In this document: piece after piece, positions 16,020 to 64,000 of the stretch
Layout of the letters: each line of letters opens with the position of its first letter
Numbering within the stretch: the stretch's first letter is position 1
Assembly: GCA_965178125.1 (NCBI GenBank)
Contig: OZ237767.1
Coordinates: 124,001-188,000, forward strand
Origin: Bilabrum cf. latius
Lineage: Eukaryota
Direction: 5' to 3'
Length of the DNA: 64,000 bases
Notes under the pieces: generated by a model
Databases searched by the model: none
The model's input: the letters and a program-made list of their open reading frames with translations, nothing else
What the model was told of the DNA's origin: nothing
Position numbers and translations under genes: made by a program

Positions 16020-16210
16020 TGGGTTGCAAGTCTGGATTCATTCATGTAATTGCTTGATTGCACTGACGCTGCGAATATGCGGAGTCTTGGTCGCACCGTG
16101 TGGCCAGTGGCGTGACGAGCAGAAGCTCGCAGTCCCAACCTCGCGGTGCTTGTGACATAGCTACACCAAGCTAGCCACATTCGCAAGTATTTGTACCCAA
16201 TTGTATCACC

Positions 16211-23022: not shown

Positions 23023-23316
23023 ATTAGTCTCGCTATTGGTCTTGCTCCCGGCTGTACCGGTGACACGTCCATTGCGCAAAAAGAATACAATATCAAATTT
23101 CCACTTCAGAATTCGATCGTAGCGATATATGTAACCCACAGCTATGAGTGTGGGCCTCCGGACCTGAGCGCTTGCCGAAAGGCAACTCAAAAACCGGAAC
23201 TTCAAACCGCCACATCAGCGTGTGCGGTGTGGTGTGGTGGACTCAATTGCGTCCTTGGCACGAGCATAAGCGACACATAACAAAGAGTTACTCGCAATAC
23301 GTAATTATAATTCTGC

Positions 23317-26109: not shown

Positions 26110-26428
26110 CATGTCGCACGGAAGCGAATTTAGTAGCTACCGTAGTAGAGGCCGACGAAGTCGTCCTGGGTATGTTAACACGCAAATTAGTTACATCAGT
26201 TACATCAGGTGGCTCCGAGTGCCACCGCTACCCTCGCTGGGCGGGCCTGTGGCCCCCCTTCAACGATGTAGGTTGCACTCGGTTTAGCCTAACAGGTACT
26301 ACCCCAGATGGCTGATTGTGACTGCTAATTAGTGGATCTAATAAAGTTACGCTGACATGAAATCGAGCAAATACACAATCTGGATCATTTGGACAGACCG
26401 TAGCGGCCTGACACGGGATCCGCCTTTG

Positions 26429-30271: not shown

Positions 30272-30779
30272 TGCAAGTCAGCACTCAGTTAGGCTACTGC
30301 TACTAACAGCTGCAGTGTATCTAAGTGTTGAAATAACACTGCACGAAGCTGCGCAACGCGCCTCGAGTTTTACCAACAACAGAATCCTCAAACCAATGAA
30401 CACGTCACCAAGGCGCGATATGCTTCGCAGCGTCCACCACGTACCAGCGTGCTAAGGCAGCGATATCACCACGCACAAACACTTCTATATCTCAATGTTT
30501 ATGTGGAAGCGTCCAAAGTCGCGATTTCTGCGGAACACTGCTAAAGAGGAGCCTGATAAACGGACGGAGAGTTGCTGTTGGAACAAATCTTCTTCTTCGA
30601 AATTTGACATGGTCGCAAAATCCTTCATTCCCATGAGCATGTGTAGAGACATGTCGGACGTGTATCAGTGGCATGTCTTAAGATGGCAATGCATCACTGC
30701 CATGCCTAGCCGCCCATGGGTATACCCCGACGAAACCGTTGCGCACACCACCCGATTTGATATGTGACGCCAAAAATCC

Positions 30780-32497: not shown

Positions 32498-32716
32498 TGA
32501 GACTTAGAAGCGCTATTTGCTGCGCGATACTCAGTGAATAGCTTTGAACGGATCTGGATTTCTTGAACACCGGAACCGCCTTCAAGTTAGCAAAAATAGA
32601 GTATCTGTTCCCATTCATCAGGCAAGTGCGCGATACATTAACGTCCCTTACCCGGTAATATCAATTTTTTTAGCTCAAAATATCCTGACTGATCGGTTAA
32701 CTGCCCATACATTGTT

Positions 32717-38700: not shown

Positions 38701-39175
38701 TCTGGCCCAGCAGCAGGCCTCGTTCCACGGTGGGCCTGGGATGGGTATCGGTATCGGAATGGGTGGAACTGGCATGGGTGGGCCTGGCATGGGTGGGCCT
38801 GGCATGGGTGGGCCTGGCATGGGTGGGCCTGGCATGGGTGGGCCTGGCATGGGTGGGCCTGGCATGGGTGGGCCTGGCATGGGTGGGCCTGGCATGGGTG
38901 GGCCTGGCATGGGTGGGCCTGGCATGGGTGGGCCTACTATGGGTGGGCCTGGCATGGGTGGGCCTGGCATGGGTGGGCCTGGCATGGGTGGGCCTGGCAT
39001 GGGTGGGCCTGGCATGGGTAGGTCCAATCAGTTCCAGCAAACCAACCCTGGTATGGAATCCTCTGGTTTAGCTAGTGACGGCAGAGGAGGTTTTTTCCTC
39101 GGTGATTCGGGTGCTAGCGTGCTACAGCCGGCCATGCCGTTCACAGGTCAAGCGAATGCTAACCCCGACGGTTAA
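32717..39175 (+). CDS. Large (~2152 aa) protein with an NYN/Zc3h12a (Regnase/N4BP1-like PIN) ribonuclease domain and a C-terminal GGPGM repeat; single frame with 14 in-frame TAGs
   Basis: LRYVSIDGANV...GLLSAVAVLAERG...VPAGQYDDLYVIADA...GCVLSNDRMSD...HRIPFSF (about 36660-37430). Eight supplied ORFs share a frame with no TAA/TGA over 6.4 kb. Terminal TAA. Confidence 0.8.
38759..39019 (+). repeat. Coding 15-bp tandem repeat (ggcatgggtgggcct, MGGPG), about 17 copies
   Basis: Directly visible near-perfect repeat. Confidence 0.95.
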
Positions 39176-44500: not shown

Positions 44501-44716
44501 AGCGTCACGGCCAGCCCCAGCTTCAGCAACAGCCCCACGCCCAGCTTCAGCAACAGCCCCACGCCCAGCTTCAGCAACAGCCCCACGCCCAGCGTCACGG
44601 CCAGCCCCAGCTTCAGCAACAGCCCCACGCCCAGCGTCACGGCCAGTCCCAGCTTCAGCAACAGCCCCACGCCCAGCGTCACGGCCAGCCCCAGCTTCAG
44701 CAACAGCCCCAATTAA
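41525..44716 (+). CDS. Type II membrane mucin-like protein (~1063 aa): TM helix, small extracellular domain, ~2.4-kb Ser/Thr/Pro stalk; two in-frame TAGs (41753, 42053); possibly 3'-truncated
   Basis: IVGCLAVIVSGLLMAAIATAIAISV TM segment. The frame continues across TAGs into the SVTASPSFSNSPTP array. TAA follows the last repeat immediately. Confidence 0.75.
42283..44710 (+). repeat. Coding minisatellite, 42-bp unit (SVTASPSFSNSPTP) with 24-bp variants, ~2.4 kb, nearly homogeneous
   Basis: agcgtcacggccagccccagcttcagcaacagccccacgccc repeated more than 50 times. Confidence 0.95.
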
Positions 44717-44719
44717 GTT

Positions 44720-45180
44720 TGTCTTTGGTGAGGCTATCAATTGCTTTGATATGTAGGACGCGCGGTTTGTGCAGGACCCCTTCGAGGTGTAGGCTCATGT
44801 GCGACGTAGCGATGCGAAGGAGCAAGTTAGAGAGCGCGGCTAGGGTGGAAAGTACAGGAGCGTCGCTGGTGGGCGAAGGGAGGAGGATGGAGCAGGCTCA
44901 GCAGTGGGAGATGTTCTATGGTTCACTGGAAAGGGGGAGGTAGTAGTGGAGGAGAAGATGATCCGGATCGGTGGGGTCATCGGGTCGATACGTTGGATTG
45001 GAATGGGGGGGTACAGGCCGGGCAGGTGGGGGTTTGGGTATATGTATGACGAGTGATTCGGATCAGGGGATCGGATCACCCAAGCACATGCGGATGTGGA
45101 AGTTGAGAGGTCACAATTAGACTCGAGCGGCAATCAAGCCGCGTGCTATTTGGGCGCTGAGGGGCAGTACTCGCCAGTTT
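44720..45180 (-). repeat. Right (inverted) copy of the 40029-40450 element
   Basis: The reverse complement aligns with 40029-40450, near-identical at the outer end. A further short fragment lies at about 45256-45284. Confidence 0.9.
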
Positions 45181-45921
45181 TTGTTATACGAACCCCTTGC
45201 TATACCATGGATTCAAGTAAGGCATCGTAACTCCGCACCAAACGGAAAAATCTGAGTTGGTGAGGCCAGCAAGGTCTCCGATTGTACTCCGCACTGAGAT
45301 ATCCGGATCCGAATCAAACCTACCTACGTTTTGCAGCTCCGGAAATTGGTAACCATTACCATTGGCCCATTACCACGGCCTGCTTGCCGCGGCCACGAGC
45401 CCGCCGTCCTCTGTCGCGTTCGTCCTCCAGATCAATCACGACCAGCAAGCCCGCATCGTCCGTGCTGCCTCACTCACGTTCACCTTGGCTCCCGCCCTCA
45501 GCCACCACGTGTGTGCGTGCACGCTGACCATCCTGCCCACTCACACGCTGCCCCAGGCAGCCCTTTGGTACTCGCTCGTCATCGCTCGTCCCCCCCGGCT
45601 GATCTGGATCTCCAGTCTTCAGTCTGAGTGGTACGGCGAGTGTTAAAGTCACCCCTTCACGTTGTCACACCCACTCTCGGTGCCAACCTTCCTGTCAGCC
45701 TGTCCACCACCGGATTTGCTGCTCAAGACCACCTCACTGCTTCCGTACCTGCCCTGCCCCAGCGCTGCCAGCCGCCTCGACTGAGCTCGCCACGAGCGTT
45801 AAACCTGTCTACCACCAATTCGGATCTACCCGCCTGCACCCGCCTAGTCTGCACCAGCAGACTGTACCGTTACCCTGCCAAAGAGCACTCAGCGTCGATC
45901 ACATACCTGAGCCTCCAACCG

Positions 45922-46159
45922 TGGACCTGGCATGGGTGGACCTGGCATGGGTGGAACTGGTATGATTGATGGAATTGGCCTGAGTGGGCCTGGCATGGCT
46001 GGGCCCGCCCAGTCCCAGCAAACCAATCATGGCAGGGACTCGTCTGGTCCAGCTAGTGGCGGTAGGGGAGTTTTATGTCTCGGTGAGTCGGGTGCTAGCG
46101 TGCTGCAGCCGGCCATGCTCTTCACAGGTCAAGCGAAGGCCGACCACAATGGGCAATGA
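45922..46159 (+). pseudogene. Diverged duplicate of the 3' end of the NYN-domain gene (about 38730-39175)
   Basis: GMGGPGMGGTG...QQTNHGRDSSGPASGGRGVLCLGESGASVLQPAMLFTGQAKADHNGQ* versus QQTNPGMESSGLASDGRGGFFLGDSGASVLQPAMPFTGQANANPDG*. Confidence 0.85.
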
Positions 46160-46414
46160 TTTCGGTAAAAATTAGATCTATTTAGCCGTTAACCAGTAGA
46201 CTATCCGGATTGGGCTGTGTGAATTTGGTCGTTGATCCGCTGATCCGGATAGATCTGGAAGAGTTGCTATTCCGTGTGCAGGACTAAACAGGTTCCAAGA
46301 TACGGATAGTCTATCCAATTGTCCAATTGGATAGCAGGCCAAATGGTTTTTGTTAATCACTCAGACCGGATTGTTATCTCGTTAGGCTAGCCTATGATAG
46401 CTATCACGTGACAC

Positions 46415-48652
46415 TCAATTGGGGCGGTGGACCGCATGTTTCCATTGGTCCAGCCGCATGATCCGATCCAGTCGCTCTGGTCTGCCAATTGTCACGCCGG
46501 GCATGTGCGTTCGAATTGCCTGCACAAGCGCTGTGCATTCCTTACACAGCTTCCGTGCCTTGTTCTCGATCGATCCGCTCCCGAGCAGCCAATCGTACCT
46601 CAGCTGCCGCTCCCACATACACGTCTCGCTGTAAAACAGGCGCCTGTCACCCCAGCCGAATTGCTCGTACGCATCGAGGCAGCTAAGTGTCCTTGGTAAA
46701 TGGTATCGATGGGTCAGGAGCCCAAATGAAACGCAGGAAGGGGGCCCTGGGGACACATTGTCAGTAGAAACAACAGTCTCCGCCGGGTCGCCCTATCGAC
46801 TGCATGTATCCAGCACACCTGCGGCTTTAATCTGCAAATTGATGAACTGCTCTGCATCCCTCAAAGTGGCCTCATCTTGCTATGCAAATGCTCGAATCTG
46901 TTTCCACGACTGCGGTCCGAACAACAAGACCCGAAGTGCCCTGATAGCAGCCTTAGAGCACAATCTGTCCGTCGGGTGGTCTTCAAGTAGCCCCTACAGC
47001 AGACCCCGCAGCAGCTGACCACCGAACAGGTCTTCCAGATTCTACATCTAAAGTAGATCTTGAGCTATGGCCCTGTGATGAGTCTCACTGTGCTTATTAG
47101 AACGATACTGTCGGGTGATTCGCTACAGCGCGACACTACGATCATGTCCAGGAAGAAGCGGTCGGTCCAAATTACCGGAGAAGTAGCTGAAATAGTTGTC
47201 GGGCGACAGTTCAGTGACTAACTTCGCCGCACTCCAGGCAGATGACTTCTGAAAGATCTCCCGATACGGGATCGGCCGTCGCAGGTCCCGCGCTGCCGGT
47301 GGCTTTGCAATTTCGGGTGCCACCCAGGTCAACAAACCATAGTGACACATGGCGCCACATCCTTGTCCGTCAAATGTGAGGTCCTTAGAACCAAATCCAG
47401 ATCCAGAAAATGGTTCCACGGGGTCTGCGTCCGGCCATTTTGGTGCCCAATCACCAGGCAGATCGGTCAATGGTCCCAAAGGCCAATCACTATCGCTCTC
47501 ATTGGCGCATCCGCTGCCGACCTCCCGAGCGCGCTAGGCCCGATACATTTCAGTCTCGTTGGCCTCTTTGGTGAATACACCGGCTGAGCCATGCGCTATG
47601 TCCTATTTAAAGCTTAGATCATTGTCGATTTTCTCGAGACCTTCGTACAGCTCACTTAGCTTGCCTCCATCGAACACCGGATAGCAATAAGACAGGCCAC
47701 CGAGGACTAGTCTTCCATCCGATGCGACGAATATCGTATCATCCGATATCTTCATGTGCACGACCCCCCTGCCATGCAAGTATTCAATGGCCTCTAGCAG
47801 CTGTAGAAGCCACAAGGCCCGCTCCCTCGGGCTCACCTCAGCGAATTTGCTATGTTTTCCCTAGCTGAACACCCGTCTGAGTGTCACGGTGTGTGGGGGG
47901 CTGATGTACCACGCAGTGTAGGGATGGACTCCATAATGAATCACCACTTCTGGTATCCACCACGGCACAAGCGGGGCAGCAGACCCGATGAATGTCTCTT
48001 GGACAGGCATCACGTTGGCGTGATTCTCAAGAGAAAGGTACCGAAGCAGGGCAACTCGCTCCATTGTATCAACACTAACGAACAGAGACCCTTCACCGCC
48101 AAATTCAGGAAGACCGCTCCGCACCAATACGTACCGAGCTGGGTCTCGAGAAGGCTATGCTTTCTCTGGTCTTCCTGATACCCCCGCCCCGGAGCTTGTT
48201 GCTGTCCCGTCACCCGCACTTGCTTGGCCATCTCCCCGTGATTGATCTGTGGTTTCTGACCGTACCATAACTAAAAAGCTGAACTCACGAGTTGATTTGG
48301 GCCCTGTTCCTTTCCCGGTCGGATTCTCCAGAGGCGGAATGCGACCACTCTCGAGATCGAACAACGCAATCTCGCTCGGTGGAGTTCTCGGCTTAATCGC
48401 CACAGGATCTCCGATGATTCGTTTTCCTTGATCACATTCAATGACTTGAGCACGACCCCCAAGGAGGCCCTGTTCTATTTCTTCGGGTGATGGCACGTGT
48501 GAGAGATCTAGGACTCCTTTCCGCCGATCAATGTACACCAACTTTGCCTACAGGTGGCTCCACCAGTCCGCGTGATCCGTTGGGTCGTGCCTAGCGACAG
48601 TCTTGCACTCGAGCTCAATGGCTTTTGCGTGGTTCTCATATTGCTTGTACAT
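46415..48652 (-). CDS. Protein kinase-fold pseudokinase resembling PINK1/PEAK1-type kinases (~745 aa, start uncertain); about 11 in-frame TAGs
   Basis: Six minus-strand ORFs in one frame, joined across TAGs. HANVMPVQETF, LLQLLEAIEYLHGRGVVHMKISDDTIFV, RLVLGGLSYC, WVAPEI, KSSAWSAAKLVTEL, LL*GLLEDHPTDRL...RVLLFGP. Ends in TGA. Confidence 0.7.
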
Positions 48653-48891
48653 TAGAGTAGAGGCTGAAATGCAAAATCCGTGGATCAAGTGAAACCTTAC
48701 AGTGCAATGCATTTGATCGATGTGCGTCTGCTTCTTGCACGCGACCAATTCCTGTCTTGGGTAGGTGTCAGTTGGCTACAATACGCTCCCATTTGTCATT
48801 AGTGCCTGGTCTCGCTAGTCTATACAACTGCCACACCACACACAGTGTCACACGCCACGCTGCTCACACACCCGCACCACTCATCACACCG

Positions 48892-51800
48892 TCAGTCGTC
48901 CTCCTTCCCCTCCCCTTTCCCCTCCCCCGCGCCACCGCCTGCCTCCCTCGCGAACAGCAGCACCGGCGCCCTGTCCCCGTACCCAGCAAGGGCCACCAGA
49001 TGCTCCGTGGGGTGCCAGTCCACCCCCAGCATGGGGTAGCCCCTCCCGTGACCCACCACGCTCTCGGAGGCACCCCCCGTGGCCTGCGCCGCCCCCTCCA
49101 GCACCACCCCAGTGTCTGCGTCCCACACGCAGATCTCACCGTCCTCGCTGCCACTGGCTAGAAGCCTGCCATCAGGGCTGAACACCGCGTTGATCCGCGA
49201 TGTCTCGCAGGACAAACCGGGGTATTGCCTCAGAATCTGCAGCGTTCGTCCTCGCACCTCTGCGAGGCCAAGATACGACGGCTACCCCAGCATGGCCAGT
49301 TGCGGCCGGGAAGGCCTGGGCACAATGCTGACGAGTGGGCTCTCCTTCATCCCCTCTGGTCTCACGATGGAGAGAGGGACGTAGGTCACCGGGTCCAGGG
49401 CGGATCGCTTGATCTCCTCTCGCGCCTGCCTCCGGGCACAAGGCCCCATGTCCTTTGTTCCACCGCGACCCCTCGCGCGGTGGGGGTCACCCACCGTCCA
49501 GAGAACAACGCAGCCCAGTGCATCTGCGCTCGCCATCCTCCTGCCCCTGCCCGCAGGAGGAAACACCACAGAGTTGACGTGCGACTTGTGAGGCGAGACG
49601 AGTGGACCGCTCTCCTTCCCGCCAGCACCAGCACTAGTACCAGCCGTATTACCTTGGAACGAGTCTGCCTTGACGAGTGCGCCGAAGCCACCTGCCGGTG
49701 CCATGCTCCCATCGCCTCCGTGGGTATGGCCCGCCCTCGCCCTGGCCGCCGCCGCCCCCCTGCTCCTAGTGCGCTCAAGGATCGCCTCAATGTCATCGCC
49801 CCCCGCCCCCGCCCCTCCTCCTCGGCCCCACCCCTTGCCGCCCCTTCCGCCCTTATTGGATGACCCGCCGGATCCTCTGAGCCCATCAGGGCCCACTGCA
49901 ATGCCCTGCAGCCTGCCGGCCAGCGGCCAGGATCTGCTGGATCGTTCCGCGTCCTCCGCCGCCCTGAGCACGCAGAACATCGCCCTCGTCACATGCTTCT
50001 GGTGCCTCCGCTCGGCCCGCGCCTCCTATTCCCGTCTCCTTGCTTCTTCGTCCTCGTCTTGTTCCCCCCCATTAGCATCCTCGCCATTCATGGCCTCGCC
50101 CCAGTGCCCCCTCGGAGTGGCTGCATTGCTGCCCCCGCCCTTGCCCCTGTCCCCTGCGCCCAGGAAGGATGACCCGACCCCCACACCGTCCCCGTCACCG
50201 TCACCGTCCTCGTCCTCGGACGATTCAAACCCATCGTCCTCATCCAACCCATCGCCATCGTCGCCGCCGTTCCCGAGCCTTGGTCGCCGCGTGTATTCCC
50301 CGGCGGCACCCGCCATCCCCCCCTTGTTCCCTGGCTCGGGCGCCCCCGCTACGGGGACACCCGTGTCCCACACCTGCAGGTGGCCGTCACCCGTCCCCAC
50401 CAACACCGCCCGTGGGTTCGCAGGGTGGAAGGCAACGGTGTAGCAGAGGGAGGGGGGCACCGTCTGGAGAACAGCGGCGAGGGCAGGCGCTCGGCTGGCC
50501 AGCCCTTTCGTGAACTCTCCCGCGCGGGGGCCGGGGGAGGGCGCGTCGGGTCTGCCGTTTGCCGCCCGCACCGCTCTGTTGAGCTGTGCGTCCATGGGCG
50601 CGTCTGTCGGTACCATCCACAGCCTGCACGTGCCGTCCGCGGAGGCGGTGAGAAGCCAGTGCCAGGGGCTGGTGCGGGGTGACAGCACGCTACCCATCCC
50701 ACGAGCAGGTTCCGCACCCTGCGCGGCGCCGGCGCCCACCCCTGGCCACCACTTCATGTCGTGCACGAGCCCAGTGTGCCCCAACAGAACCGCACCGTCG
50801 TACCGCCCAGGCGACACCCGCGCTGCACCACCAGGCACTGCACCTCCAACGGTGCGACCCTCGCCGTCGCCGCCCGTCCCTCCAGACACATTTCGTCTCG
50901 CCCTCGCCCTCGCCCGCGCCGCCCGCCCACCGGTGGATTGACGGCCACGGCCACGCCCCGCGCCCCCGGCGATATCGTCATCGTCATCGCCATCGTCGTC
51001 CATGCCCGGTGGCGCATCGTCCTCCCACTCGACGCGGTCCTCCGGGTCACCCTGTGCGGCAATGACGTCAGCGGTCACCAGGTCGTAGATCCTGACGTGG
51101 TGCACTTCCGCAAGCCCGCCCGGCTCCACCACACCCATGGCCCCGCCGGGCCCGGGTCCCTGCCGCGGCTGGGCCTGCGAGGAGCCCTTGGTGTCCCGAC
51201 CCGCGCACGCCACCGCCAGCAGCCTCCCGCAAGGACTAAATCGGACGCACACTGCACCTAACCGCCCGGCAGGCAGCGAGCTCCTGTGCGTGTCCGGCGC
51301 CAGGCACTGCTGCCGCGGGCGGCGCCTCCTCCTCTGCGCTCGCCGCGTCGTCACCCTGACCTGAGGGCTGAGGTCAAGGCCCTGCACGGGGACCACAGAG
51401 CCGCCAAGAATACCGTTCAGTTTCTCCTCCGCCTCAGCGCGGGTGGCCGTGGCCTCCCGGACGGTCTCCTCGAGGGGGTTCTCTTCGATCTCCTCTCGCC
51501 GTTGCGACCGGTCGTCCCCGCGGATGGTCGCAAGGGACAGACCCGGGTCCCGCAGCAGGGCGAGTGATCTGGCCCCCATCGGGAACCGGCGCGGCAGCAG
51601 AGCCCACGAGGGGGGCCCTCTCCGGGGAACAACGGCGGGAATACTCGTCACACCCGTGCCTGCGCGGCCGCTTGCGGAGGTGACAATCTGCAGAGCGCCG
51701 GCACCACCGGACCCCGACTGGAGGGCTGCGTCCCGCTCCAGTCCCCTCGTTGGGGTCACGGGGACGCTCCGGGGGTCGGCCTGGTCCAGACCGTACACGT

Positions 51801-53796
51801 CCGACTCGGCAGTGGCACCAAGCCCGTCACGATCGCCTTCTCGGCGCGGGGTAGTGCCTCCAGAAGTGGGCTATCCACCGGTGGATCGAGCCGCGTCAAT
51901 GTCCGGCTGGGTCACGAGATCAGATCGGTGCGGAACGGCCGCGGTGGCGCTGACGTGGAGGTGCATGGGCAGCTCGTGGCGGCGGGTTATGCGGAACTGG
52001 AGGAACACGCTCGGACTCGGAATCCAGGGCAGACCCGGCTGCCGCCTGCGGTCACCAACCTCGATCGCCCTCGCTGTGACGTCAGCGGCGTGTTCCCTGG
52101 CTTCCTCAGCCGTGGGCTCGATCCACTCGTGCATCCGGATGGGCAGTCGCCTCCCTAGCACGGAATCCGGCAGCACGCCTTCGCCCGGGCCGCCGCCGTC
52201 CGCGTCGTTGTTCCCTGAGAAATCGGTTGCAACCGGGGCGCTCCCCACGTCGAGGTGCCTGGCCGCCGCGTCGCAAGCCAGATCCACCCGTGGACTGCCG
52301 TCAGGAGCGATCAGCCTGAGGTAGCCCCACGCCACTGGCCTGCCCTGCTCGTGCACCTCCTCCGCACCGGGTGTTCCCGGCTTGTTCCCTACGATGCCCC
52401 GGCGGTGGGAGGGCGTGCCTGCCTCGGCGGGGAGGGAGGGGGAGGGATCGATCAGCTCCACGAACAATGTGATTCCAGGGCGCGCCACCCACGGCAAGCC
52501 CGTGAGTTTGGAGAGCTGCTGCTCCCCAGATGGAACCCCGGTGCCGGCACTCGGCGAAAAAGGATCCTATCCGTCCCCACCCTGACCACCCTCGCCGGTT
52601 TGACCACCCTCATCGAGCCCCGCAGCCAGCCTCCCTTCGCTGGCGGCCCCCAGGTCCCACAGCAGGGTCTGTTCCCAGCGCGGATGCCCGCCCAGCGAAC
52701 CCGCCCCCGACCATCCCAACGAGTGGTCATGCTGCGACTGGGAGCGGGGCTGGTAGGCCCCGTAGGTTCCACCAGCGCGCGGCGCCGCTGCTCCCCCGAA
52801 CGACACGGCCCGTGGCATCTTGTCGCCCGCCCCAGACGCTCCACCGAGGGTGTTCCGGACGCTTCGGTCGCCAGCGCGGGATCGATACCCGGTGCCCGCA
52901 GCTCCAATCATCGTGGCCTCGGCCCCGGCAGCGGAACCGGCATTGCGCGCGCCGCTTCCATTGTTCCCTGCTTTGCTGGTGGTGCATGGCATGGTGGCGC
53001 GCGGCGTGGCGGCGTCAAGAAGAGCAGCCCCGATCCCTCCCACGACCGCCTGCGCCCGCGCCCCGATGTGGCCCATGAGAGTGCCGTGAGACTGTCGCAG
53101 CTCGGGTGCAGTGCACTGCTGCGAATGCCGCGTGGGCCGCTTCGATTGCGCGAGTGCCTGCGGGGGCAGGACGGCCCACCGACCGGTGGTCTCGTCCACG
53201 ATGTGGGCTCGCACAAGTGGCTGCCTGCAATAGGGGTCCGAAATGTTGCCGTCTAACCCGTGAATATGCAGCGCGAGTGATCTGCCAGCACCCCTAGAAA
53301 GCACCCCGAATGGATCGGACCACGCTCCAGGGTTTGGTGGTGCTGCGGGCGCTGGCAGTGGCTGCAGTGCAGCGCCGGCCAAGCAGCCGCCCGACAGCAC
53401 TCGCCACGCTCGGCTCAACAAACCGCTGCAAGTGCCACAGCAATCGTATGCGGATCCACAACTATCGTATACGGTACCAGCAGGAGGCGATAATGACGAC
53501 GCTGCAGGCACATTTGCGGTACAGGCTTGTGAATCCGGCACTGGATTCGTCTCGTGTAGTGCCGGTGCGGCCGGACCAGCACGGCCGACCTACTCATCTG
53601 TATAATCCTATGTTGCTCGACCTGGTGCCTATGCATCTGCCGCTGTACTAGCTTTCGGGTAGCTTGCTGGAGCTTGGTGATCTGGTTCTACGGCAGCCGA
53701 TGCTTCGGCAGCAGCGGCACCAGCACCACCATCTCGTGACGATGCTCTCCTATTTTGTAGGCTCCTATCTTTGTCTTTCTTGCCTTGACGCGGCAT
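48892..53796 (-). CDS. AHI1: Jouberin/AHI1-like ciliary transition-zone protein (C2-like domain plus WD40), single frame, ~1634 aa; seven in-frame TAGs
   Basis: LALHIHGLD..SDPYCRQPLVRAHIVDETTGRW, PRWEQTLLWD, LFVELID, VAWGYLRL, LPAGRLGAVCVRFSPCGRLLAVAC, GHTGLVHDMKW, LLTASADGTCRLW, PSLCYTVAFHP, HKSHVNSVVF and FSPDGRLLASGSEDG appear in AHI1 order. Ends in TGA. Confidence 0.85.
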
Positions 53797-53915
53797 CAAG
53801 ATGACCGAAATTCACCTCCCAATCATAACGGCTATCACTTATTTTATACAGTGTACTTAACTATACGAAATCTGAGTTAGGTCCATACGTGGGTGCAAGC
53901 AATTTATATCACGCC

Positions 53916-56592
53916 ATGGGAGCATGTGGATCTAGTCTTATTTCAGGTGCCGACGCATCCGGCAAATATTTTGATCGAGATTCATCCACTGAGGCCAAAT
54001 CGCGCAGTGATATAGATCAAAGCACTTATGAGACTGTTGGGGCCTCGAGCATTTTTGTCACTCCTGTAAGCTATATGCATGCGTTCAAGTGATTTACCAT
54101 CTACTTTTTTGGATGGTAAAAGACGTGACAAATTCTAGACACTCATGCTGTACTTACTTGCAACGCAGGGTACCACGTAGGGAGCTGCCGGTGGTTCAGG
54201 CAGCCGAGGAGATGCGGGTGGCGACGCGGAGCGTACGCTACCTCTTGCAAGGACTAAAGTTCCAGACAGCCCAACGAAACTCCGATTGAATCTGTGGTAG
54301 TCCATGAAAGACACGGCAAGACAAGGCAGCAATAGTACGACCCCACAATGGGAGCAAGATGTCCCCGAGAATTTGTACGACGAGAATGCTGACCAAGGAA
54401 TCATGTGGGCTGACAGTCCAAGGGCTAGTCGACAAGATATTTATAGAAGCGATTCAAGAGGGTCTACAGTATGTAGCGGTGACGTATCCGCGAGACTGTC
54501 GGAATCCCAAGTCGGAAAGCAAGATGCTGCTGCTCTCAGCACAGCTCAGCCCTTCTCTGCCAGGTCGGGGGGCGTATCGGAACCGGCCGCAGCAACTTTC
54601 GAGGCCGAAACAGACGAGTCTTCATCTCAAGGGGGTTCCAATAGCGATGACCACTCGCTTCCAGGGCACGCGCTGCCTGCCAGTCCCAGGCCGAACGAGG
54701 AACATCACGACGCTGTGAGCACCGTACGCGTCGTTGCTGGGGATTCCGAGCACTCTGCAACAGGGAATGCACGTACGAAGAGCTAGAGCGCAGGAAACGG
54801 TCATGCTTTGCACGATCAAGAGCAGCCAGTTGCGCGTGCAAGTGGGCACGTGCAAGCATCCGCAGCAGCCTCGACATCGTCCTCAGCTGGTAGCGGGACT
54901 GCCACTAGCCCACCAGGTGAAGAACAAAGGAAAGAAATGGATGGTGGTATTCAAGTCATCAGCGGCAGTAGCTCGGACGATGAAGAGCTCGATGGCGCCG
55001 TGAATCTCGTCGCCGCGAGCGAGAGCGGGGAAGCCCAGGTGGCGACCCGCGTGCCATTTTCCCCCGTGCAGCCCAGCGTGGAGATCCCACAGCACAGCCA
55101 GCGCGCCAGGGAATACCTTGCACATGGATCTACCCCCGAAACAGCGCACGACTCGGTAAGGAGAGATGGTTCGGCTGGAGCGGCGAGCGGTTCTCACGCG
55201 CATGGGGACGGCCACACTCATATTGCTTTGGGCTCTAGGGGAGGCCCTCACGACATGATGGGCGGTTTTCGGGTGTCGCGGAGAGGCGATTAGGATCATT
55301 GGGGTCCACACGGGGAGATGTTTGAGGCGGGGAGCGCGGAAGTGGCCGCTGCTTCCAAGGCGGACGACGATTCGATCCTCATCGACGCTGGTGCATCCCT
55401 GGTCGCCCTCAAGTCCATCGCCCGACAGCTTGACACGACTATGAAGCTAGCCGACCTTGTTCCCGTCAGGACCATCGGGGTCGGCACGTTCGGGCGGGTG
55501 AGGATGGTGCGGGACAAGAGGACGGGCAAGCTGTACGCTCTCAAGACGCTGCAGAAAGCCAGGATTGTGCGCCTCAAGCAGCAGCGCAACGTCTGCTACG
55601 AGAAGGCGGTGCTTGCTTCCATCCGCCACCCTTTCTTGATCCAGTTGCAGGCCGCTTTCCAGGACGAGGAGTGCATGTACCTGGTGCTGGAGCTGGTGCA
55701 AGGCGGAGACTTTGTGGGGAGACAGGCAGAAGTGGTTGTGTTCGAGGAAGCATCCGCTCGTTTCTACGCTGCCTGCGTGCTGAGCGGGCTGGCCCATCTG
55801 CACGAGAGGAGGATCTTGTACAGGGACCTAAAGGTGAGATGAGTTCTGCGGCTGCCCGTTCCTTCGTGTGCCGACCGTATCACGCCTCCTCCACCCCACG
55901 CTGCTCCCCCTGGATGCCTCCGTACCGCCAACTCTAACGCACATGTTTTGTTGCCTGTACCCTTGCACTATCATCATCCAATCGCTTTGGGACCCCCGCA
56001 GCCTGACAACCTGCTTGTGGACACTACTGGCTATGTGAGGCTGTGCGATTTCGGCTTCGCAAAGTACGTTCCGGCCGGCTCCATGACGCGAACGCTGTGC
56101 GGGACCCCCGATTTCCTGGCCCCAGAGTGCTTGCTGAAGAGCGGGCACCATGAGGGTGCCGATTACTGGGCCCTCGGCGTGCTCATCTACGAGATGCTGT
56201 CTGGTGACAGCCCGTTCGCCTCGGATGACGGTGACCAGGTGGAGACCTTCAAGCGGATTCTGAACTGCCAACGCACTCTCGCGTTTCCCTTGGAGATGCG
56301 GAGTGAACAGCGTGCCGCTGTGAAGCTGCTCACTGGGCTGCTGCAAAAGTCGATGCCGGCTCGTCTCGGCTGCCGCCGTGCAGGCGTGTCTGAGATCCTG
56401 TACCACGAGTGGTTTTCGGCGATCGACTTTGGCAAGTTGCATCGCAGGGAGATTAAGGCACCATGGGTGCCGAAGCTCGAGTCCGAGGACGACACGCAGT
56501 TTTTTGATGACTTCTCTTGTGAAGAGGAGGAGGAGGACGAGGAGGAGCGGCTCAAGCCAGGGACAGACATGGCCTGGTGCAAAGATTTTTAA
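53916..56592 (+). CDS. PKA-catalytic-like AGC kinase A with MGACGS acylation motif and long disordered N-terminus. Exons 53916-54065, 54169-55833, 56002-56592; four in-frame TAGs
   Basis: IGVGTFGRV, YALK, YRDLK|PDNLL, DFGFAK, TLCGTPDFLAPE, DYWALGVLIYEM, APWVPKL, WCKDF-TAA. Confidence 0.9.
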
Positions 56593-56790
56593 GTGGTGGT
56601 ACTGCGTTTACTAGTTGGAACATTTTTAAATATTTAAAAGAATCAATTCTACCCTTCATGCAATATTTCGACGACATCAATCAATAAAGGATCTGGGCAT
56701 AAAGAACGTTCCTTAAACTATTGAATCAGAACGAACCTCTGGAGCCGTGCGTGGTAGTTTACCTTACGTAGGTAGTTCGTAACCATTAAA

Positions 56791-59294
56791 ATGGGTGTTT
56801 GTGGGTCGTCCCTCGCAGTGTAGACAAAACCAGCAGATAATGCTATGCAGGATGGCTCACTTGAGTTCCCTGGCAGCGATGGTCCCCGTTATCGAGGCAA
56901 GGATGTAAGCGTGCTGCTCTTTGCTTGGCGTCTCGCCTGCGCAAGCCGCAATAACCGCCCTATCCGCCATATTTCCTACAATATATTTGCTTAAAATCGT
57001 GTTTTCCCTCCACCGCTGGATTTAAACTTCCCAAGGCTCGCAGGAAGTGGCTCAATACAACACAAGCAAAGCAGGCAGCCTTAGCAACATGGCGACCCGA
57101 CCGCCCAATGCAACCGGACAACGCGCGTGTGGAGCTGTACAACGGATGTAGCATGGCAGCAAAGGTGATACTTATATGCATGACATTCTCGAGCCCGCGG
57201 AGGATCGCACAGGAGAGGTACCAGGCAACGTCAATGCGGAGGCAAGGCCAACAAGCACGGCAAAGTCCGCCTGGCATGATAAAACCAATCGTCATGGCAG
57301 GTCCCAGACTGGTCTTGGTCTGGCTCCAGGAGCAATTAGGGATGGATCATCGTACAGCGGTTTCAGCGATTCGTTTACACGACTTTCTCAAGTATCTGGA
57401 TCCCTGATCGATTTCAAGGTGAGCGTAGCTAGCTCTGCACCATTCGTGGCTGGACACATGCCGTCGCATCGCGTGCGCCAGTACCAGATAAAACAGAACA
57501 CTTCTTAGGGCTAGCTGAACTCCCAGGCGTCTACGCGGACGCTGGGGTCCACATCCTCGGGGTCGAGGTCGCAGACGAGGACGGGAGCTAGCACGCCTCG
57601 GAGCGTCCAGTGGCCGCAATCGAGCATGGTACAGCTACCAACAGCCTCCGACCGCACTTTAGGTGAGCACAATACATCCCAAAGGAGCTCTTCTACGTTT
57701 GAATGCTAAGTTTTGCACCTCAAACACGGTGATTTTGCTTGCCAGGGGGCAGGATCGTGTCCGTGGTATTGGCTTCTATCCGTCTATGAGCTAGCATTTC
57801 TGTATGTGACCATACTTTAGCACTACTGGCAGCTGCAACCCATACAACTGTCCATTGGTCCAGCTCTTGCGCGCAGGTGAGCCTGGTAAAGCACATCACG
57901 AACGCATCCATCGAGGCTCCAAGGCTGCGAGAAGGCAGCGCGAGAAGCGAAACCGCAACATGCCGAGGAGTATGAGCGCCAGAGAGCGTACAATTGCCCT
58001 GGCTGCCGGTGGGTCAGTATCCCGCTGCAGAAAATCGCCGGTGCTGCTCAGCGCTCGCGCCAAGCCAACGGTTGCAATCTCGAGTGGAGCCGGGGTGGGA
58101 GCGGCAGGGGGCGGCGCCGGTCGTGCAGTAGGTCGGCAGGAGGAGTCAATGAAGTCGGAGGACGCTGCAGATGCAACGGATGGGTCTCTGGAGGCCCTCA
58201 AGTCTATCGCAAGGGGTCTAGACACGTCGATGAAGAGAACTGACCTGGTGTCGCTGAGAACCATCGGCGAGGGCACATTCGGGCGAGTAAGGATGGTGCG
58301 GGACAAGAGGGATGGCGAACTATATGCGCTGAAATCCATGACGAAGGCGTCCGTGATTAGGATGTCGTACCAGAGTTACGTCTGCTACGAGAAGGCGGTG
58401 CTTGCCGCCATCCGTCACCCGTTCCTGATCCAGCTGCAGGCCGCTTTCCAAGACGAGGAGTGCATGTACCTTGTAATGGAACTGATTCAAGGCGGAGATT
58501 TGGCCACCCGATTGGGGCACGTAGGTGTGCTGAGCCAGTCGTCGGCTCGTTTCTACGCTGCCTGCGTGCTGAGCGGGCTGGCCCATCTCCACGAGAGGAG
58601 GATCGTGTACAGGGACCTAAAGGTGAGCATGCATGCGCTATTTGAGCTAGCACTAAGTCTGCCGTATCTCGATATGCCTGAACCGTTTGCGCCGATGCCT
58701 TTTTCTGCGCAGCCCGAGAACCTTCTGCTAGATACGAGCGGATACATCCGCATTTGCGATTTCGGCTTGGCAAAGCACGTCCCAGCAGGGGAAACGACCA
58801 ACACGTTATGCGGGACACCTGATTTTGTTGCTCCAGAGTGCCTGCTGGGCAGAGGACATAGTGAAGGTGCCGACTACTGGGCGCTGGGCGTTCTCATCTA
58901 TGAGATGCTCTGCGGGAACACCCCGTTTGCATCCAGCGACGGGAATCAAATCAAGACGTTTAAGCGCATCATTCGAGCTGACAGGTCCCTGACCTTCCCG
59001 AAATTCACCCAGGATGTGGCACCCAACGCTGTCGTCTTGATTCGAGACCTGCTGCAGAAGAATCTAGCGGACCGGCTTGGCTGCCGTCGACCAGGTGTGC
59101 TCGAGATCATCCAACACGAGTGGTTTTCAGCAATAGACTTCGATGAGCTGCTGCAAAAGAGACTCAGGGCGCCATGGGTTCCGAAGCTCACATCGAAACA
59201 AGACAGCCGATACTTTACAGAGTGCACGGCAGAGGTAGACATCAGGGATACCCTCGCTGTTGACGCCGACATGGAGTGGTGCAAAGATTTCTGA
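56791..59294 (+). CDS. PKA-catalytic-like AGC kinase B with MGVCGS motif. Exons 56791-56904, 57044-57662, 57877-58622, 58713-59294; four in-frame TAGs
   Basis: IGEGTFGRV, YRDLK|PENLL (90-nt stop-free intron at the same position as in kinase A), DFGLAK, CGTPDFVAPE, WCKDF-TGA. Confidence 0.88.
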
Positions 59295-59610
59295 TATGCA
59301 CTGGTGACGATTTGGCAGCTGTTTGAGACACTGTGCTTTGGCCACGTATCCAGGATTCCTGCTGTCTATCGATTCGCGTTGCCAGCAGTGTGTACGTACC
59401 CTCTGCTACATACCAAATCGCCAATTTAGCCCTACTAGTGCATGCATTGTCATATTCGATGCAATTAAGATATATTCTTAGATTGAATTCTGCGTTCTGT
59501 TCGTTCAGGCCCTGTCATCGTCACTGTGGCACCCGCTGGGCCGTGGTGACAACGCACTATGTGGCACGAATCGCCGCAGGTAACGTGTGTGTAGTAGCTT
59601 CGCGAGACAA

Positions 59611-61189
59611 ATGGGTGGCATATGCGTGTCGTATCCCGAACAACACGTTGTCGCAGACAATGCACAGTGTACTGCGAAGGTGGCACCAATACAATTACCG
59701 GAGTTCGGCGGCCGAAACATGCAAGCGCCGACGCCAGGTAAGAATGCAAGTACATACCCGTAATTCGCGCTAATCCAGGCTCAGTAAGTCAACAAAGCTT
59801 ACAATGTGATCCTGTTACTTTCGTGCTGCAGATTCAGGTGATGTTCTTGCGCAAAAGGGTGAATCTGGGGGGACTTTCGTGAAATCTGTTCCATTCCCAC
59901 TTTCGCCTCATCGCGTGAGTTTTGGCAGTCTTGAAGATAGCATGGCGCAATTCCTGAAGCAAAACTCCTACTGCACTTGTGACGGCGAATCTGAAGCGCA
60001 GAAACTGCCTGGATCTGCCGACTTCATGCCGTCGGCGCAAGACGTGGGCGTTCCACCACTTGCCGGCGCCAGCGCTGCCGACGTGCCTTCAAGGCGTCGC
60101 TCATCGTGGATCAAGCTGCGGGAGGAGCAAGAGGCGTTTGCTTTCGCGCCCCTTCGCTTGCCTGAATTCGACGATCTACTTGGCCGTGTTGCCACAGATA
60201 TCACTACAGAGGATTTGGTGGCTTCGGTGCGGGCTCGCACATTCAGTCGGCAAGGCTCCCAGAGCTAGCCGGGTTCGGCTAGGTCGAAGCAAACAAGAGG
60301 AAGCCGGCTTCATTGCACAGGAGACTTGCGGACGGCAGTCCCAGCGCAGGATTCGGGGGCTGAGGGAGCAGTCAGCACGGGGCCAGGTTCCATCGGGCGG
60401 CCGCATTCTTGCCAGTGCAGAGCACAGCACCAACACGACTCTCATCCCGGAATTGTCCTTGGAAGCTCTACGAGCGAAAATTTAACCGTGCCTTTAGGCC
60501 TGGGCAAGATAAAATCGCCGGCAGGACTAGATATGAGCAGAGCTGTATTACCACCCGGCGGGGGTGCTCCAGCCTTCAAGCAGACTACCTCGGAGCCGAG
60601 CCTGGAATCGCGGTGGGGAAAACACCGAAGGACATCCGATTCCAATGATGCATGCACCAAATGCCCCGTGCCGTCGCGGTCAGAGACTTCCGGCACACCA
60701 GCAGACCCTGCAGTGGTGGACGCTCGCCTCGCACCGAACGGGAGGCCTAGCGAAGGCGACAACGATCGCCCCGCTCCTCTCCCAGAGAGGCACCCGGACA
60801 ATAGGCGTCCATCGCTAGACGGAATCCTATCGAGATCATTCGAAGCTACGAGTGCAAGGGACAAGGACAAGGGGGTCGATGGCAGCGCTTCCTATTTTTA
60901 GGCACCTTCCATGAAAAGCGCGGACGGAACACAATCCTCATTGTGCAGCCTCTCCCTGGCCACAGCGCAGCTGGATTCCAAGTATGCCAGCGATAACGTC
61001 TAGCAGTAGCAGACTAGTGCGCCCGGGTAGGCGTACCAGTCCGGCGGCAGGAGCACCAGCGGGGCCTCCGTGCTGACGCCAGCGAGCGGAAGTCTGGAAA
61101 GCATGGCCAGGGAGGTAGCCCGGCTGAGGGATCTTTACGGGGACAGCAGAGAAATTGACACGCCAGGGCATGAGATCAGAGGTGTTTAA
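59611..61189 (+). CDS. Disordered protein with MGGICVS acylation-like N-terminus and no kinase domain. Exons 59611-59737 and 59832-61189; five in-frame TAGs
   Basis: In-phase GTAAGA...TGCAG intron. The frame stays open across TAGs at 60266, 60899, 61001, 61007 and 61028 to a TAA. Confidence 0.7.
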
Positions 61190-61541
61190 CGTCCAAGTAG
61201 CCAGACTTCGCAGTGCTGCAGCAGCTGCTAGTCAAATGCGTGCGTGGTGAGATAAAAAATATTACCACAGTGCAGTATGCCGCAAAAGGTGACGAACAAC
61301 TGCTTAGAACTGTATATAACAGACACCATCCGGGTTCTCCGGACTGATCATGTTTCGAAGTTTGCGCAAGTGCACTGCATTTTGGCACCACGTGCACGCA
61401 CGCATCACACTGCCGGCGTCTTCGCCGTCATGCACGTCCGTCAGAGCACTTCAAAATTAAACGTATTGGCCGCACTTGATCTTCCACGAGTGCCACATAC
61501 GCGTTCATATCAAGACACGGACTGAAGGGACAGCGACGTTG

Positions 61542-63957
61542 ATGGGGGCTTGTGGATCGAAAAATGTGCAGCAGCCCGACTTCGATGATCCCTCGGCATG
61601 CCAACCAGTGAGGTACGGGTACGCGGTGGAGATGCCCCCTGCTAAGTCCGCTGTGACTATCAAGTCCGACTATATTGCCTTTCTGACGTCACATGCCCTC
61701 CGCCTATCAAGCAGGGAGACCAGGCACAAGCAGATGAGAATGGTAGTGGCGTCGTGACCCGCGTAGGTACTGGGCTGCCCACAGACCATGTGCCGCGCCG
61801 TCCCATACTGAAACAAGAATGTTGCCAAGACCAATCCAACAATAAGGATGAAGAGGTGGAAAGGTCCGCTGAAGTGCCCACAATCACCCGGTCTCGCACG
61901 CTGTGGGGCAATATGCGAAGGCTCTCTCTGCATGAGCTTCAATTGCCAGAGGACGACCTAATGGCATCAGATGCTACGAATACACATACGCAGACTTCAA
62001 TGGCTACTCCTTTTTCATATACTGGGAAATTTGACACAAAGCTAAGCGTTTCAGGCGCGCAGAGGGGGTTCACGTACTCGGATGCTGCAGGCGCCCTGGA
62101 CCTCATGGACAGTTAGCCTGGCACAGACACAGCTCCCTAGGATAAACCCAGTGAGACAATTTACCATCGCATCTTGAGCGCTCCCGTGAAATTTGTTTGC
62201 GGGCCTTGCAAGGTCAGGGTTAGGGTGAGCATTCCTCGATTCGTTCAAACTCGTGCTATGTTGTTCCCATCCCCTTGCCATGAAAGCCTATCATATTGTG
62301 CAGTACCTCCCCCCGTTGATGACAACCTCAATGACGACGAAGAAGAGCACGAACAAAGTGGCCACGATTCAAGTGACGCTATAGATGTAGTCAGTTCTAG
62401 TAGCGATAGCAGCAGCGTCGGGCTTCAATCAGAAGAACTACAAGAATTGAATGTGAGCGATGGATCGGCTTCTGATCAGCAGGACGGCTCAATTCCAACA
62501 ATCCACGAATCCTGGAGTGATCTAGACCGGCCTGCTTAGGTGGAGCACGGCCACCTTTCCAGGGATACCCAAGGCAATGACGCGCACGAAATGTGCGCAA
62601 CAGCGACATTGTCGGCTGATACTGGAGGCGGCTTGGCAATGCCGGCTCATATGTCTGTAGATAGGGGGCCTCGACTGGAACCAGTTCAAGAGAGCACCTT
62701 TGTTCCGGTTTCGCGGAGGCCGCCGACGTGGGCGCCCGCAACCACAAGGGTGCGCTCTCGTCCCCTGCCCCCACCACCTTCCGTCCTGCCGAGCTTCTCA
62801 CTGCTGGAGCTCAAGTCGATCACCCGACAGCTTGACATGACCATGCAGCTGGCTGATCTGGTACCCGTGAGGACCATCGGGGTGGGCACGTTCGGGCGGG
62901 TGAGGATGGTGCGGGACAGGAGGACGGGCAAGCTGTACGCTCTCAAGACGCTGCGGAAAGCCACGGTCGTTCGCTTGCGGCAGCAGCGCAACGTCTGCTA
63001 CGAGAAGGCGGTGCTTGCCGCCATCCGTCACCCGTTCCTAATCCAACTGCAGGCCGCTTTCCAAGACGAGGAGTGCATGTACCTGGTGCTGGAGCTGGTG
63101 CAAGGCATCTAGATGTCCAGAGTGATCGGGACAGATGAGTTTCATTCCGAATCCCAGGCTCGATTTCTCGGTGCCCAGATGCTCTGCGGGCTTGCGCACC
63201 TGCACCTCCGCCGGGTCCTATACCGCGGGCTCGAGGTAAGAGAGCAAGACTGAATCCTGTCTGCAATCGTGTGGAAAATGCCTATTATTACGCATCACTC
63301 CCTGCTCCCCCTGCCCATGCCTCCTGCCTCCTCTCCTGCTCGCAGCCAGCAAACGCAGTCATCGGACCCGATGGATATCTGAACATGCGAAACTTCATGC
63401 AGTCGAAGCCGCTTCCGGCAGGGGCAAAGACCTGGACCTTCTGTGGCAATCCGGATCGAATGCCGCCGGAGTGTTTGCTTGGCCTCGGGCACAACGAAGG
63501 CGCCGATTACTGGGCGCTCGGCGTGCTCATCTATGAGATGATCTCCGGAAAGAACCCGTTCGCATCGGACGACAGCGATCCCATGAAAGTCTCCCACAAC
63601 ATCATTTTCGAGGATGTGCTCGCTTCAAGAGGTCCGCTTCCCGCCCCACTTGCGGTATCCTCACCTGCTGCGCTGGACCTGGTGCGCGGACTGCTGCGAA
63701 AGTCCCAGTCAGACCGTCTCGGCTGCCACAGTGAGGGAGCAGTCGAGATCCTGTAGCACGAGTGGTTCTCGGCGATCGACTTCGGCAAGCTGCTCCGCAA
63801 GGAGATAGAGGCGCCCTGGGTGCCTAAGCTAGAGTCCGAGGACGATGGCGCACAAGTTTTCGAAGAGCAAGTCGTATACTCGGATGAAGAGGAGGGGGAC
63901 GAGGTAGAGTAGGAGATGTGTACTGGTGAATCCATGGAGTGGTGCAGACACTTTTGA
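61542..63957 (+). CDS. PKA-like pseudokinase C with MGACGS motif. Exons 61542-61607, 61715-62150, 62304-63235, 63346-63957; six in-frame TAGs
   Basis: The N-lobe is nearly identical to kinase A. The catalytic loop reads YRGLE|PAN, DFG is replaced by NFM, and the activation segment reads CGNPDRMPPE. The conserved tail MEWCRHF-TGA lies beyond the TAGs at 63754 and 63910. Confidence 0.85.
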
Positions 63958-64000
63958 GATTGCCTGCCTGAGTGCACTGCAGTTGCACATCGTTGACGTG

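Follow-up and report, generated by a model that had tools for sequence, protein, structure and literature searches.

It is rare for a nuclear code to give UAG and UAA different meanings. The cases listed are one fornicate, one rhizarian, one green alga and a few ciliates, and several of these are known from transcriptomes or partial assemblies only (PMC5304391, PMC11687900). In the fornicate Iotanema spirale, the suppressor tRNA, a point mutant of tRNA-Gln(CUG), is a prediction only, and the release factor eRF1 carries T32G in its GTS motif (PMC5304391). In the ciliates Hartmannula sinica and Trochilia petrani no suppressor tRNA was detected, and 86.9-98.3% of genes in the recoded genomes stop at UAA (PMC11687900). 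The broader code in which UAA and UAG (UAR) both mean glutamine (Gln), NCBI table 6, is used by many ciliates, hexamitines, Streblomastix, Amoeboaphelidium and some ulvophytes (PMC11687900). Here, we investigated a 64,000-nucleotide stretch of Bilabrum cf. latius (G000:C33:124001-188000, "the window," from an assembly of 48.6 Mb in 111 contigs), which carries near its end a protein kinase gene, kinase C, with TAG codons in its reading frame.

Our alignments make it very probable that UAG is a third Gln codon in the nuclear genome of this Cafeteria-related bicosoecid (the host), with UAA and UGA as the only terminators. A code with UAG as Gln and UAA and UGA as stops is already known elsewhere, and it is apparently new for the supergroup stramenopiles. 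The in-frame "stops" of the kinase gene are reassigned codons, not mutations. In-frame TAGs occur in every gene family examined, essential genes included, and so point to reassignment of UAG and not to site-specific readthrough of one kinase.

UAG as a sense codon across the genome

Internal stops in the Pfam matches we inspected genome-wide are all TAG: 20 of 20 in dynein AAA1 (12 of 28 matches affected), 24 of 24 in DEAD (18 of 43 matches) and 3 of 3 in tRNA-synt_1c. Once TAG is read, 18 of 19 dynein heavy-chain stretches become single frames of more than 3,000 codons, and the other is split in two. The 19 dyneins comprise 61,173 codons, including 275 TAG, 2215 CAG and 372 CAA. The TAG share of Gln codons ranges from 0.7 to 27% per gene, and TAG is commonest where GC content at third positions is low. 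Three dynein heavy-chain genes lie on the window's own contig (G000:C33:672320-769336). Within the window, nine frames of at least 900 codons appear with TAG as sense (three of them in a tandem repeat), none under the standard code, none with TAA read through and one with TGA read through. Gene calls made under the standard code fragment these proteins (P0368 and P0369 start just after a TAG), so the lineage is mis-annotated in protein databases.

The ends of genes were also checked. Twelve dynein ends in the fetched stretches use TGA (nine) or TAA (three) and never TAG, and 11 of these 12 stops fall within three codons of the last well-aligned column. TAG is likewise absent from seven other ends, namely those of eRF1 (TAA), the glutaminyl- and glutamyl-tRNA synthetases (GlnRS and GluRS; both TGA) and the four kinases (TAA or TGA). 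It is very unlikely that UAG still ends some genes as well as being sense. The set of checked ends is small, and eRF1 retains GTS, E55 and S70, as such a double role would allow; set against this are all of the ends just listed, a TAG read 20 codons ahead of one dynein stop and another 15 ahead of the kinase C stop, and last 100 codons that are not depleted of TAG (3 of 37 Gln codons versus 137 of 1694). We rejected a context-dependent stop/sense code of the Condylostoma or Blastocrithidia type on the same dynein and other ends, a small sample. The UAR code of table 6 was also rejected, as conserved matches contain no in-frame TAA and TAA ends eRF1, kinase A and three dyneins.

To assign the amino acid, we aligned the dyneins with 268 homologues (120 plus 148 of 150, two near-identical environmental fragments having been dropped). 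The 37 TAG columns conserved at 70% or more are occupied by Gln in 26 cases, glutamate (Glu) in nine, Val and Asp in one each and Tyr in none; at 90% or more, Gln accounts for eight of nine. As controls in the same alignment, CAG falls at Gln in 314 of 402 columns and TAC at Tyr in 376 of 458. Log-odds summed over 194 TAG columns are positive for Gln (+105) and negative for Glu (-74), Lys (-117), Ser (-149), Leu (-259), Tyr (-390) and Trp (-565), and the latter six were discarded as the main meaning of TAG. When DEAD helicases are compared with DDX23 homologues, conserved TAG columns are Gln in 7 of 13, including the Q-motif Gln of three helicases, and Glu in three. One TAG of eRF1 stands where 82 of 85 homologues have Gln.

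A metagenomic relative provides an independent comparison. The best of the 80 loci returned (L093) shares 89% amino acid and 76% nucleotide identity with the host over 888 codons and contains 12 in-frame TAG codons, with TAA and TGA both absent. In 19 places one of the two sequences carries TAG; opposite it stand CAG (11), CAA (two) and CAT, CTC, GAA, TCG, AAG or ACC (one each), and never TAC, TAT or GAG.

We mapped four runs (X1, X2, X5 and X6) over positions 45200-64000. X5 shows seven GT-AG joints, of which X6 shows two; X1 and X2 show none. From these splice joints we infer that X5 and X6 are RNA, against their labels of "RNA? (probably DNA)" and "RNA?"; our run search found no matching run on record as RNA. 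Joint-based models of kinase A, kinase B and a 465-residue gene contain TAG as their only internal stop. Spliced contigs span three TAGs of kinase A (X5 and X6) and three of kinase B (X5) with no differences; therefore, editing is excluded at the spanned sites. We give practically no credence to a standard code in which the TAGs come from misassembly or disappear by mRNA editing (e.g., U-to-C or A-to-I). Errors would hit codons other than TAG too, contigs of X1 and X2, possibly the very runs that the assembly was built from, match the window, the spliced contigs of a second study are unchanged at the spanned TAGs, and the environmental relative, which is independent, carries TAGs of its own at other Gln sites. 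No support for error or editing was found, and both were ruled out.

The CUA tRNA, the synthetases and eRF1

One nuclear tRNA gene with anticodon CUA was found in the host (G000:C23:907607-907679, minus strand; L005), on a 999-kb contig. It folds as the standard cloverleaf of Rfam RF00005 and scores 69.8 bits, second among 48 tRNA matches, in a search that scored 63 of 780 candidates. No second UAG-decoding tRNA was found by two pattern searches and ARAGORN, which intron-containing or edited tRNAs would escape. The D-stem (8 of 8 positions), T-loop and G73 match host tRNA-Gln(UUG), and the anticodon stem equals that of tRNA-Tyr(GUA) at four of five positions on each strand. Eukaryotic TyrRS requires C1-G72 plus A73, and GlnRS reads U35. 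This tRNA(CUA) may be a Tyr-derived or mosaic suppressor charged with Gln. Our confidence in its ancestry is low because the comparison had no nuclear Trp(CCA), Leu or His tRNA, none having been found. CCA to CUA is also a single-step anticodon change.

Several other origins were tried. A point mutant of host tRNA-Gln(CUG) or tRNA-Gln(UUG) was rejected at 48 and 49 identical positions, respectively, and tRNA-Asp(GUC), whose gene was found, does not match. A viral origin was rejected after a search of viral contigs with 17 bases of the anticodon arm returned three matches, none of them a tRNA. Pyrrolysine-type decoding was dismissed because the ARAGORN "Pyl" label only follows the anticodon, the cloverleaf is standard and UAG aligns with Gln; pyl genes were not searched.

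We found one GlnRS gene of cytosolic type, in which Gly replaces the Arg of the human QARS motif "GFKRL." Plant GlnRS also has Gly at this position, and we did not use the change as evidence. In the cytosolic GluRS (L240), a TAG stands just before EFSRL, where host GlnRS and human QARS have Trp; it is a single site with no obvious Gln fit.

One eRF1 gene was found (G000:C35; L070:1068-2943), the other match to the family resembling pelota. Its stop-recognition domain has two in-frame TAGs, one of which is the last codon before an intron. Of the two, one is the TAG at the conserved Gln position noted above, and the other lies at the human Leu69 position, occupied by Leu in 81 and Gln in 4 of 85 homologues. 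With both in frame, a complete eRF1 can be produced only by reading through UAG, a dependence that might hold the new code in place. The host also departs from the common motifs: KADGTS replaces the RGNGTS of 76 of 105 rows (another 18 are gaps), and TAVNIKS, found in one row, replaces the TASNIKS of 89 of 105. In human numbering, the rare changes are at G29, N30, S60 and L69. Thr32 and Leu69 have been linked to recognition of the G in UAG (PMC5304391), and it is plausible that the host changes beside GTS and at Leu69 are a cause of reduced UAG recognition.

The mechanism we propose would have three parts. The nuclear tRNA(CUA) would pair with UAG and not with UAA. It would be charged with Gln by the cytosolic GlnRS, as suggested by the protein alignments together with G73, U35 and the Gln-type D-stem. 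Lastly, eRF1, altered near GTS, in TASNIKS and at Leu69, would have lost most of its recognition of UAG. A fuller account is a good deal more doubtful, and we offer it tentatively: a first nuclear code change in stramenopiles; an amber suppressor derived from tRNA-Tyr (GUA to CUA), not the mutated tRNA-Gln(CUG) predicted for such codes, with its identity switched to Gln by A73 to G73 and a Gln-type D-stem; lock-in of the new code by the two UAGs of eRF1; and, possibly, a persisting trace of Glu or Tyr.

Some of our observations pull away from a simple Gln assignment and from its proposed machinery. Over its whole length, tRNA(CUA) is closest to tRNA-Tyr(GUA), at 50 of 73 positions, ahead of tRNA-Gln(UUG) at 49 and tRNA-Gln(CUG) at 48. 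Its acceptor stem equals that of tRNA-Tyr(GUA) at six of seven pairs and at six of seven positions of the 3' strand, where the next best of 25 other tRNA types reaches four. The GTS, E55, S70 and YxCxxxF elements of eRF1 are all intact. The residue charged at UAG is deduced from sequence. Among the dyneins, one TAG occupies a conserved Tyr column of a divergent gene, and Glu is in excess at TAG columns of the main set (9 versus 2.9 expected; gene-stratified permutation P = 0.0014), holding 7 of 33 TAG columns where the five closest homologues agree. A mutational origin of this excess, from GAG to TAG, found no support, as a TTG/CTG control showed no matching first-position bias.

These points bear on whether UAG is sense but ambiguous, read chiefly as Gln and to a real extent also as Glu (or Tyr), a mosaic tRNA(CUA) being charged by more than one synthetase. 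We consider this quite unlikely. Glu at 9 of 37 conserved TAG columns compares with 22 of 445 for CAG plus CAA, and in the best mixture of two residues Glu is weighted 0.25 at TAG versus 0.05 at CAG. The acceptor stem has a Tyr-like C1-G72, six of seven anticodon-loop bases are common with tRNA-Glu(CUC), and two of the three TAGs of the kinase C domain align with GAG in kinase D. However, conserved Gln columns are not depleted of TAG (26 observed, 27.4 expected), the invariant Q-motif Gln is occupied by TAG, and GAG or GAA is the partner at only 1 of 19 sites in L093. Tyr has a mean frequency of 0.012 at TAG columns, equal to that at CAG and CAA. A change from GAG to TAG would also be a one-base path to a conservative Glu-to-Gln replacement. 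The Glu excess was not replicated in 20 further stretches, where six TAG columns gave four Gln, one Glu and one Tyr and CAG plus CAA fell at Glu columns in 9 of 44. Three of the nine Glu-type sites are in fact one column, where Gln is second commonest and L093 has CAG, and at six of the nine another host dynein has CAG or CAA. The Glu excess is probably not a sign of ambiguous decoding, and we retain Gln as the meaning of UAG.

Kinase C and its paralogs

Four kinases resembling cGMP-dependent protein kinase (PKG) are clustered at 53916-63957 of the window and just beyond its end (L052:161-4616); see Table 1. The kinase domain and tail of all four match PKG1 and PKA, PKG being a kinase of the AGC group, and kinase D shares a cNMP-binding match with PKG. 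Unlike PKG, kinases A, B and C have no Pfam match to a cNMP-binding domain and begin MGxCGS, and kinase C is without the catalytic Asp and DFG. The MGxCGS start of kinase C is presumably an acylation motif, with a putative role in membrane targeting. The patchy near-identity among the paralogs suggests gene conversion.

Table 1. Coordinates of features in the window and of kinase D, with in-frame TAG codons
Feature	Position	Strand	Details
TMEM260-like frame	9527-14314	+	1596 codons, 5 TAG
DDX23/Prp28 helicase frame	16067-19351	+	1095 codons, 6 TAG, one between the two helicase domains
Membrane-protein frame, paralog 1	23311-26106	+	5 TAG
Membrane-protein frame, paralog 2	26432-30277	-	8 TAG
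Open frame	32693-39172	+	2160 codons, 14 TAG; no Pfam match
Open frame	46418-48847	-	810 codons, 13 TAG, 11 of them in one X5 contig with 0 differences
WD40 protein frame	48895-53811	-	1639 codons, 7 TAG
Kinase A	53916-56592	+	801 aa, 3 exons; catalytic motifs intact; TAG 54178, 54298, 54784, 55291; stop TAA
Kinase B	56791-59294	+	686 aa, 4 exons; TAG 56821, 57149, 57506, 57512; stop TGA; three joints in X5
Spliced gene, function unassigned	59611-61189	+	465 aa, 5 in-frame TAG, stop TAA; two joints in X5; no Pfam match
Kinase C, predicted first exon	61542-61607	+	Starts MGACGS, as A (MGACGS); B has MGVCGS
Kinase C, exon 2	61715-63235	+	Low-complexity linker (TAG 62114, 62138, 62537), then N-lobe (TAG 63110); Pkinase E = 1.3e-22
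Kinase C, in-frame TAG in hinge region of kinase domain	63110-63112	+	Aligned with GAC (A), GAT (B), GAG (D)
Kinase C, predicted GT-AG intron	63236-63345	+	110 nt, in the catalytic loop; same place as introns of A and B, whose joints appear in X5/X6
Kinase C, last exon (C-lobe, AGC-type tail)	63346-63957	+	Best PDB match cGMP-dependent protein kinase 1, E = 1e-28
Kinase C, in-frame TAG as Gln (EIL-Q-HEW)	63754-63756	+	Aligned with TAC (A), CAA (B), TAG (D)
Kinase C, second in-frame TAG in acidic C-tail	63910-63912	+	Aligned with GAG (A, D) and GAT (B) in a gappy alignment; X1 contig bridges without differences
Kinase C, true stop TGA	63955-63957	+	Homologous stops: A TAA, B TGA, D TGA
Kinase D, fourth paralog	L052:161-4616, just beyond window end	-	TAG at same EIL-x-HEW site; cNMP-binding match; catalytic motifs intact

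The forward frame 63745-63957 of kinase C contains EIL, TAG (63754-56), HEWFSAIDFGKLLRKEIEAPWVPKLESEDDG...EVE, TAG (63910-12) and EMCTGESMEWCRHF, followed by TGA (63955-57), with HEWFS after the TAG at 63754; this confirms a sequence-only reading made earlier. The paralogs are also as that reading gave them, EII(CAA)HEWFS...MEWCKDF-TGA in B and EIL(TAC)HEWFS...MAWCKDF-TAA in A, and the TGA at 63955 does align with the stops of A and B, as well as that of D. Translation through TAG, its central claim, is supported, the decisive evidence being genome-wide. It rightly cautioned that site 63754 alone cannot separate Gln from Tyr, which the other genes resolve to Gln; the EIL-x-HEW column is variable, and human PKG1 has K there (IQKHKWF). 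Four further TAGs of kinase C were absent from that reading, one in the hinge region at 63110 and three (62114, 62138 and 62537) in the predicted N-terminal part. Both introns of kinase A are seen as GT-AG joints in X5 and X6.

We then aligned the codons of kinases A to D with TAG taken as Gln and counted differences by the Nei-Gojobori method with Fisher P values; such pairwise counts cannot assign selection to kinase C alone. In the 30 codons after TAG 63754, kinases C and A differ by 10 synonymous and 3 non-synonymous changes (dN/dS, or omega, of 0.04; P = 1.6e-6), and C and D by 3 synonymous and 0 non-synonymous (P = 0.007). From TAG 63110 to the gene end, kinase C gives an omega of 0.21-0.31 against its three paralogs. 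The codon alignment that the earlier reading had proposed as a check puts omega far below 1 in the 30 codons after 63754. As an internal control, the tail conservation that it pointed to is weaker than claimed, the C tail being near-identical to that of D. Over the last 32 codons, the signal for C versus A is weaker and not significant (omega 0.44, P = 0.1).

The predicted model of kinase C has 732 residues and six TAGs, with no further internal stop and no frameshift. Because UAG means Gln, kinase C reads as an intact gene and not as a nonsense pseudogene. The VAIK Lys (YALK) and helix-C Glu (YEK) are kept. The catalytic loop is YRGLEPAN in place of YRDLKPEN, DFG has become NFM, and the catalytic Asp is lost; these motifs make kinase C a probable PKG-like pseudokinase without catalytic activity. 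X5 and X6 have low depth over its unique parts and no joint at either predicted intron, which is no evidence for or against expression.

Kinase C alone could still be a decaying pseudogene with a tail recently copied from D, so that its own TAGs are nonsense; the code change would be unaffected. As a local control only, the tail is open to this objection, since a recent duplication or gene conversion could have kept it conserved even if C were not under selection. Kinase C has no catalytic Asp, no Lys two positions further on and no DFG, non-synonymous divergence is raised in the segment bearing these motifs (C versus D 0.33, A versus D 0.15), and the 30 codons after TAG 63754 are only three bases off D. 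Yet the stretch that runs from the first TAG to the gene end keeps an omega under 1 (C versus D 0.28, P = 2e-14), and the predicted 732-codon frame is free of frameshifts, TAA and TGA and keeps both MGxCGS and the intron position. Moreover, the catalytically intact kinase D carries the identical TAG in EIL-x-HEW. On these grounds we find decay improbable and prefer an intact kinase C.

The remaining frames of the window add few assignments. The paired membrane-protein paralogs at 23311-30277 are too divergent at their TAG sites for an amino acid to be assigned. The reverse-strand frame at 46418-48847 has stretches that look kinase-like by eye, without a Pfam match. Long coding tandem repeats with Ser/Pro/Thr units of the SPSFSNSPTPSVTA type occur at 42056-44794 and around 7430-7930, in two putative surface proteins. 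Positions 1-954 hold a repetitive frame with a weak DUF2735 match under the cut-off.

Placement of the host and comparison with known codes

The best named match of the host eRF1 is that of Cafeteria roenbergensis, at 69%. A DNAH6-like tree (39 rows, quick IQ-TREE) places the host and L093 as sister to the Cafeteria clade with an SH-aLRT of 99, in a group that also holds Cantina; it is a single gene searched quickly and without bootstrap, which counts against a firm placement. In the Cafeteria clade, the standard code translates the dyneins at full length, and no stop falls within the aligned parts of three related metagenome loci. The mitochondrial contig (G000:C111; 38.4 kb, 24% GC) has TGA as Trp, a tRNA(UCA) and protein frames that end in TAA; ARAGORN finds only 10 tRNA genes on it. 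Cafileria marina likewise has mitochondrial TGA as Trp, in a genome of 42.8 kb and 21.3% GC (PMC6723347). The change would thus have come after the split from Cafeteria and seems restricted to nuclear genes; L093 indicates that one or more environmental relatives share it.

Some further sequences came up in these searches. On a 17.9-kb contig (G000:C95; L001, L264) there is another eukaryotic 18S gene, whose aligned blocks are 77-83% identical to the array on C12; it is probably from a contaminant or prey organism. The metagenome locus L129 is a distant dynein (48% identity) with 10 in-frame TAGs and no TAA or TGA in its aligned part, possibly another UAG-only code. Dyneins at loci L123 and L150 have all three stops in frame (e.g., 31 TAA, 31 TAG and 27 TGA), like codes without a dedicated stop.

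Full-text literature yielded no nuclear UAG reassignment in a bicosoecid or other stramenopile, within a coverage that leaves out most subscription journals and supplements. The word "stramenopile" is absent from the main text of PMC5304391, PMC11687900 and PMC10553269, and the available portions of PMC11412368, PMC10120064 and PMC6723347 contain no report of UAG reassignment in stramenopiles. The case adds a major eukaryotic group, and it brings with it an assembly, a candidate tRNA gene, a release factor, a synthetase and a standard-code sister lineage, Cafeteria. Three questions become testable: which eRF1 changes abolish recognition of UAG while sparing that of UAA and UGA, what gives a tRNA with anticodon CUA its Gln identity, and by what path a code is altered when the genome is rich in GC, so that loss of the codon under AT pressure is no explanation.

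The closest described system is Iotanema, an unrelated lineage with the same assignments, in which UAG is read as Gln, uncoupled from UAA, and UAA is kept as a stop (PMC5304391). The host differs from it in that the tRNA(CUA) gene has been found and is no point mutant of a host tRNA-Gln, and in that GTS of eRF1 is intact with its neighbours changed. UAG alone also means Gln in the phyllopharyngean ciliates H. sinica and T. petrani and in Protocruzia tuzeti (PMC11687900). In contrast to the recoded ciliates, the host window is ~59% GC and TGA ends 9 of the 12 dyneins. The table 6 code has UAG as Gln in common with the host, where UAA stays a used stop and is not read through. The rhizarian exLh and the TARA ciliate genomes assembled from metagenomes (UAG as Leu) and Scotinosphaera (UAG as Ser) have reassigned UAG only, too, to another amino acid (PMC5304391, PMC11687900). 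Lastly, Leu69 of eRF1 is changed to Ala in exLh (PMC5304391, PMC11687900), whereas the same position in the host is itself a TAG codon, read as the Gln that 4 of 85 homologues have there.

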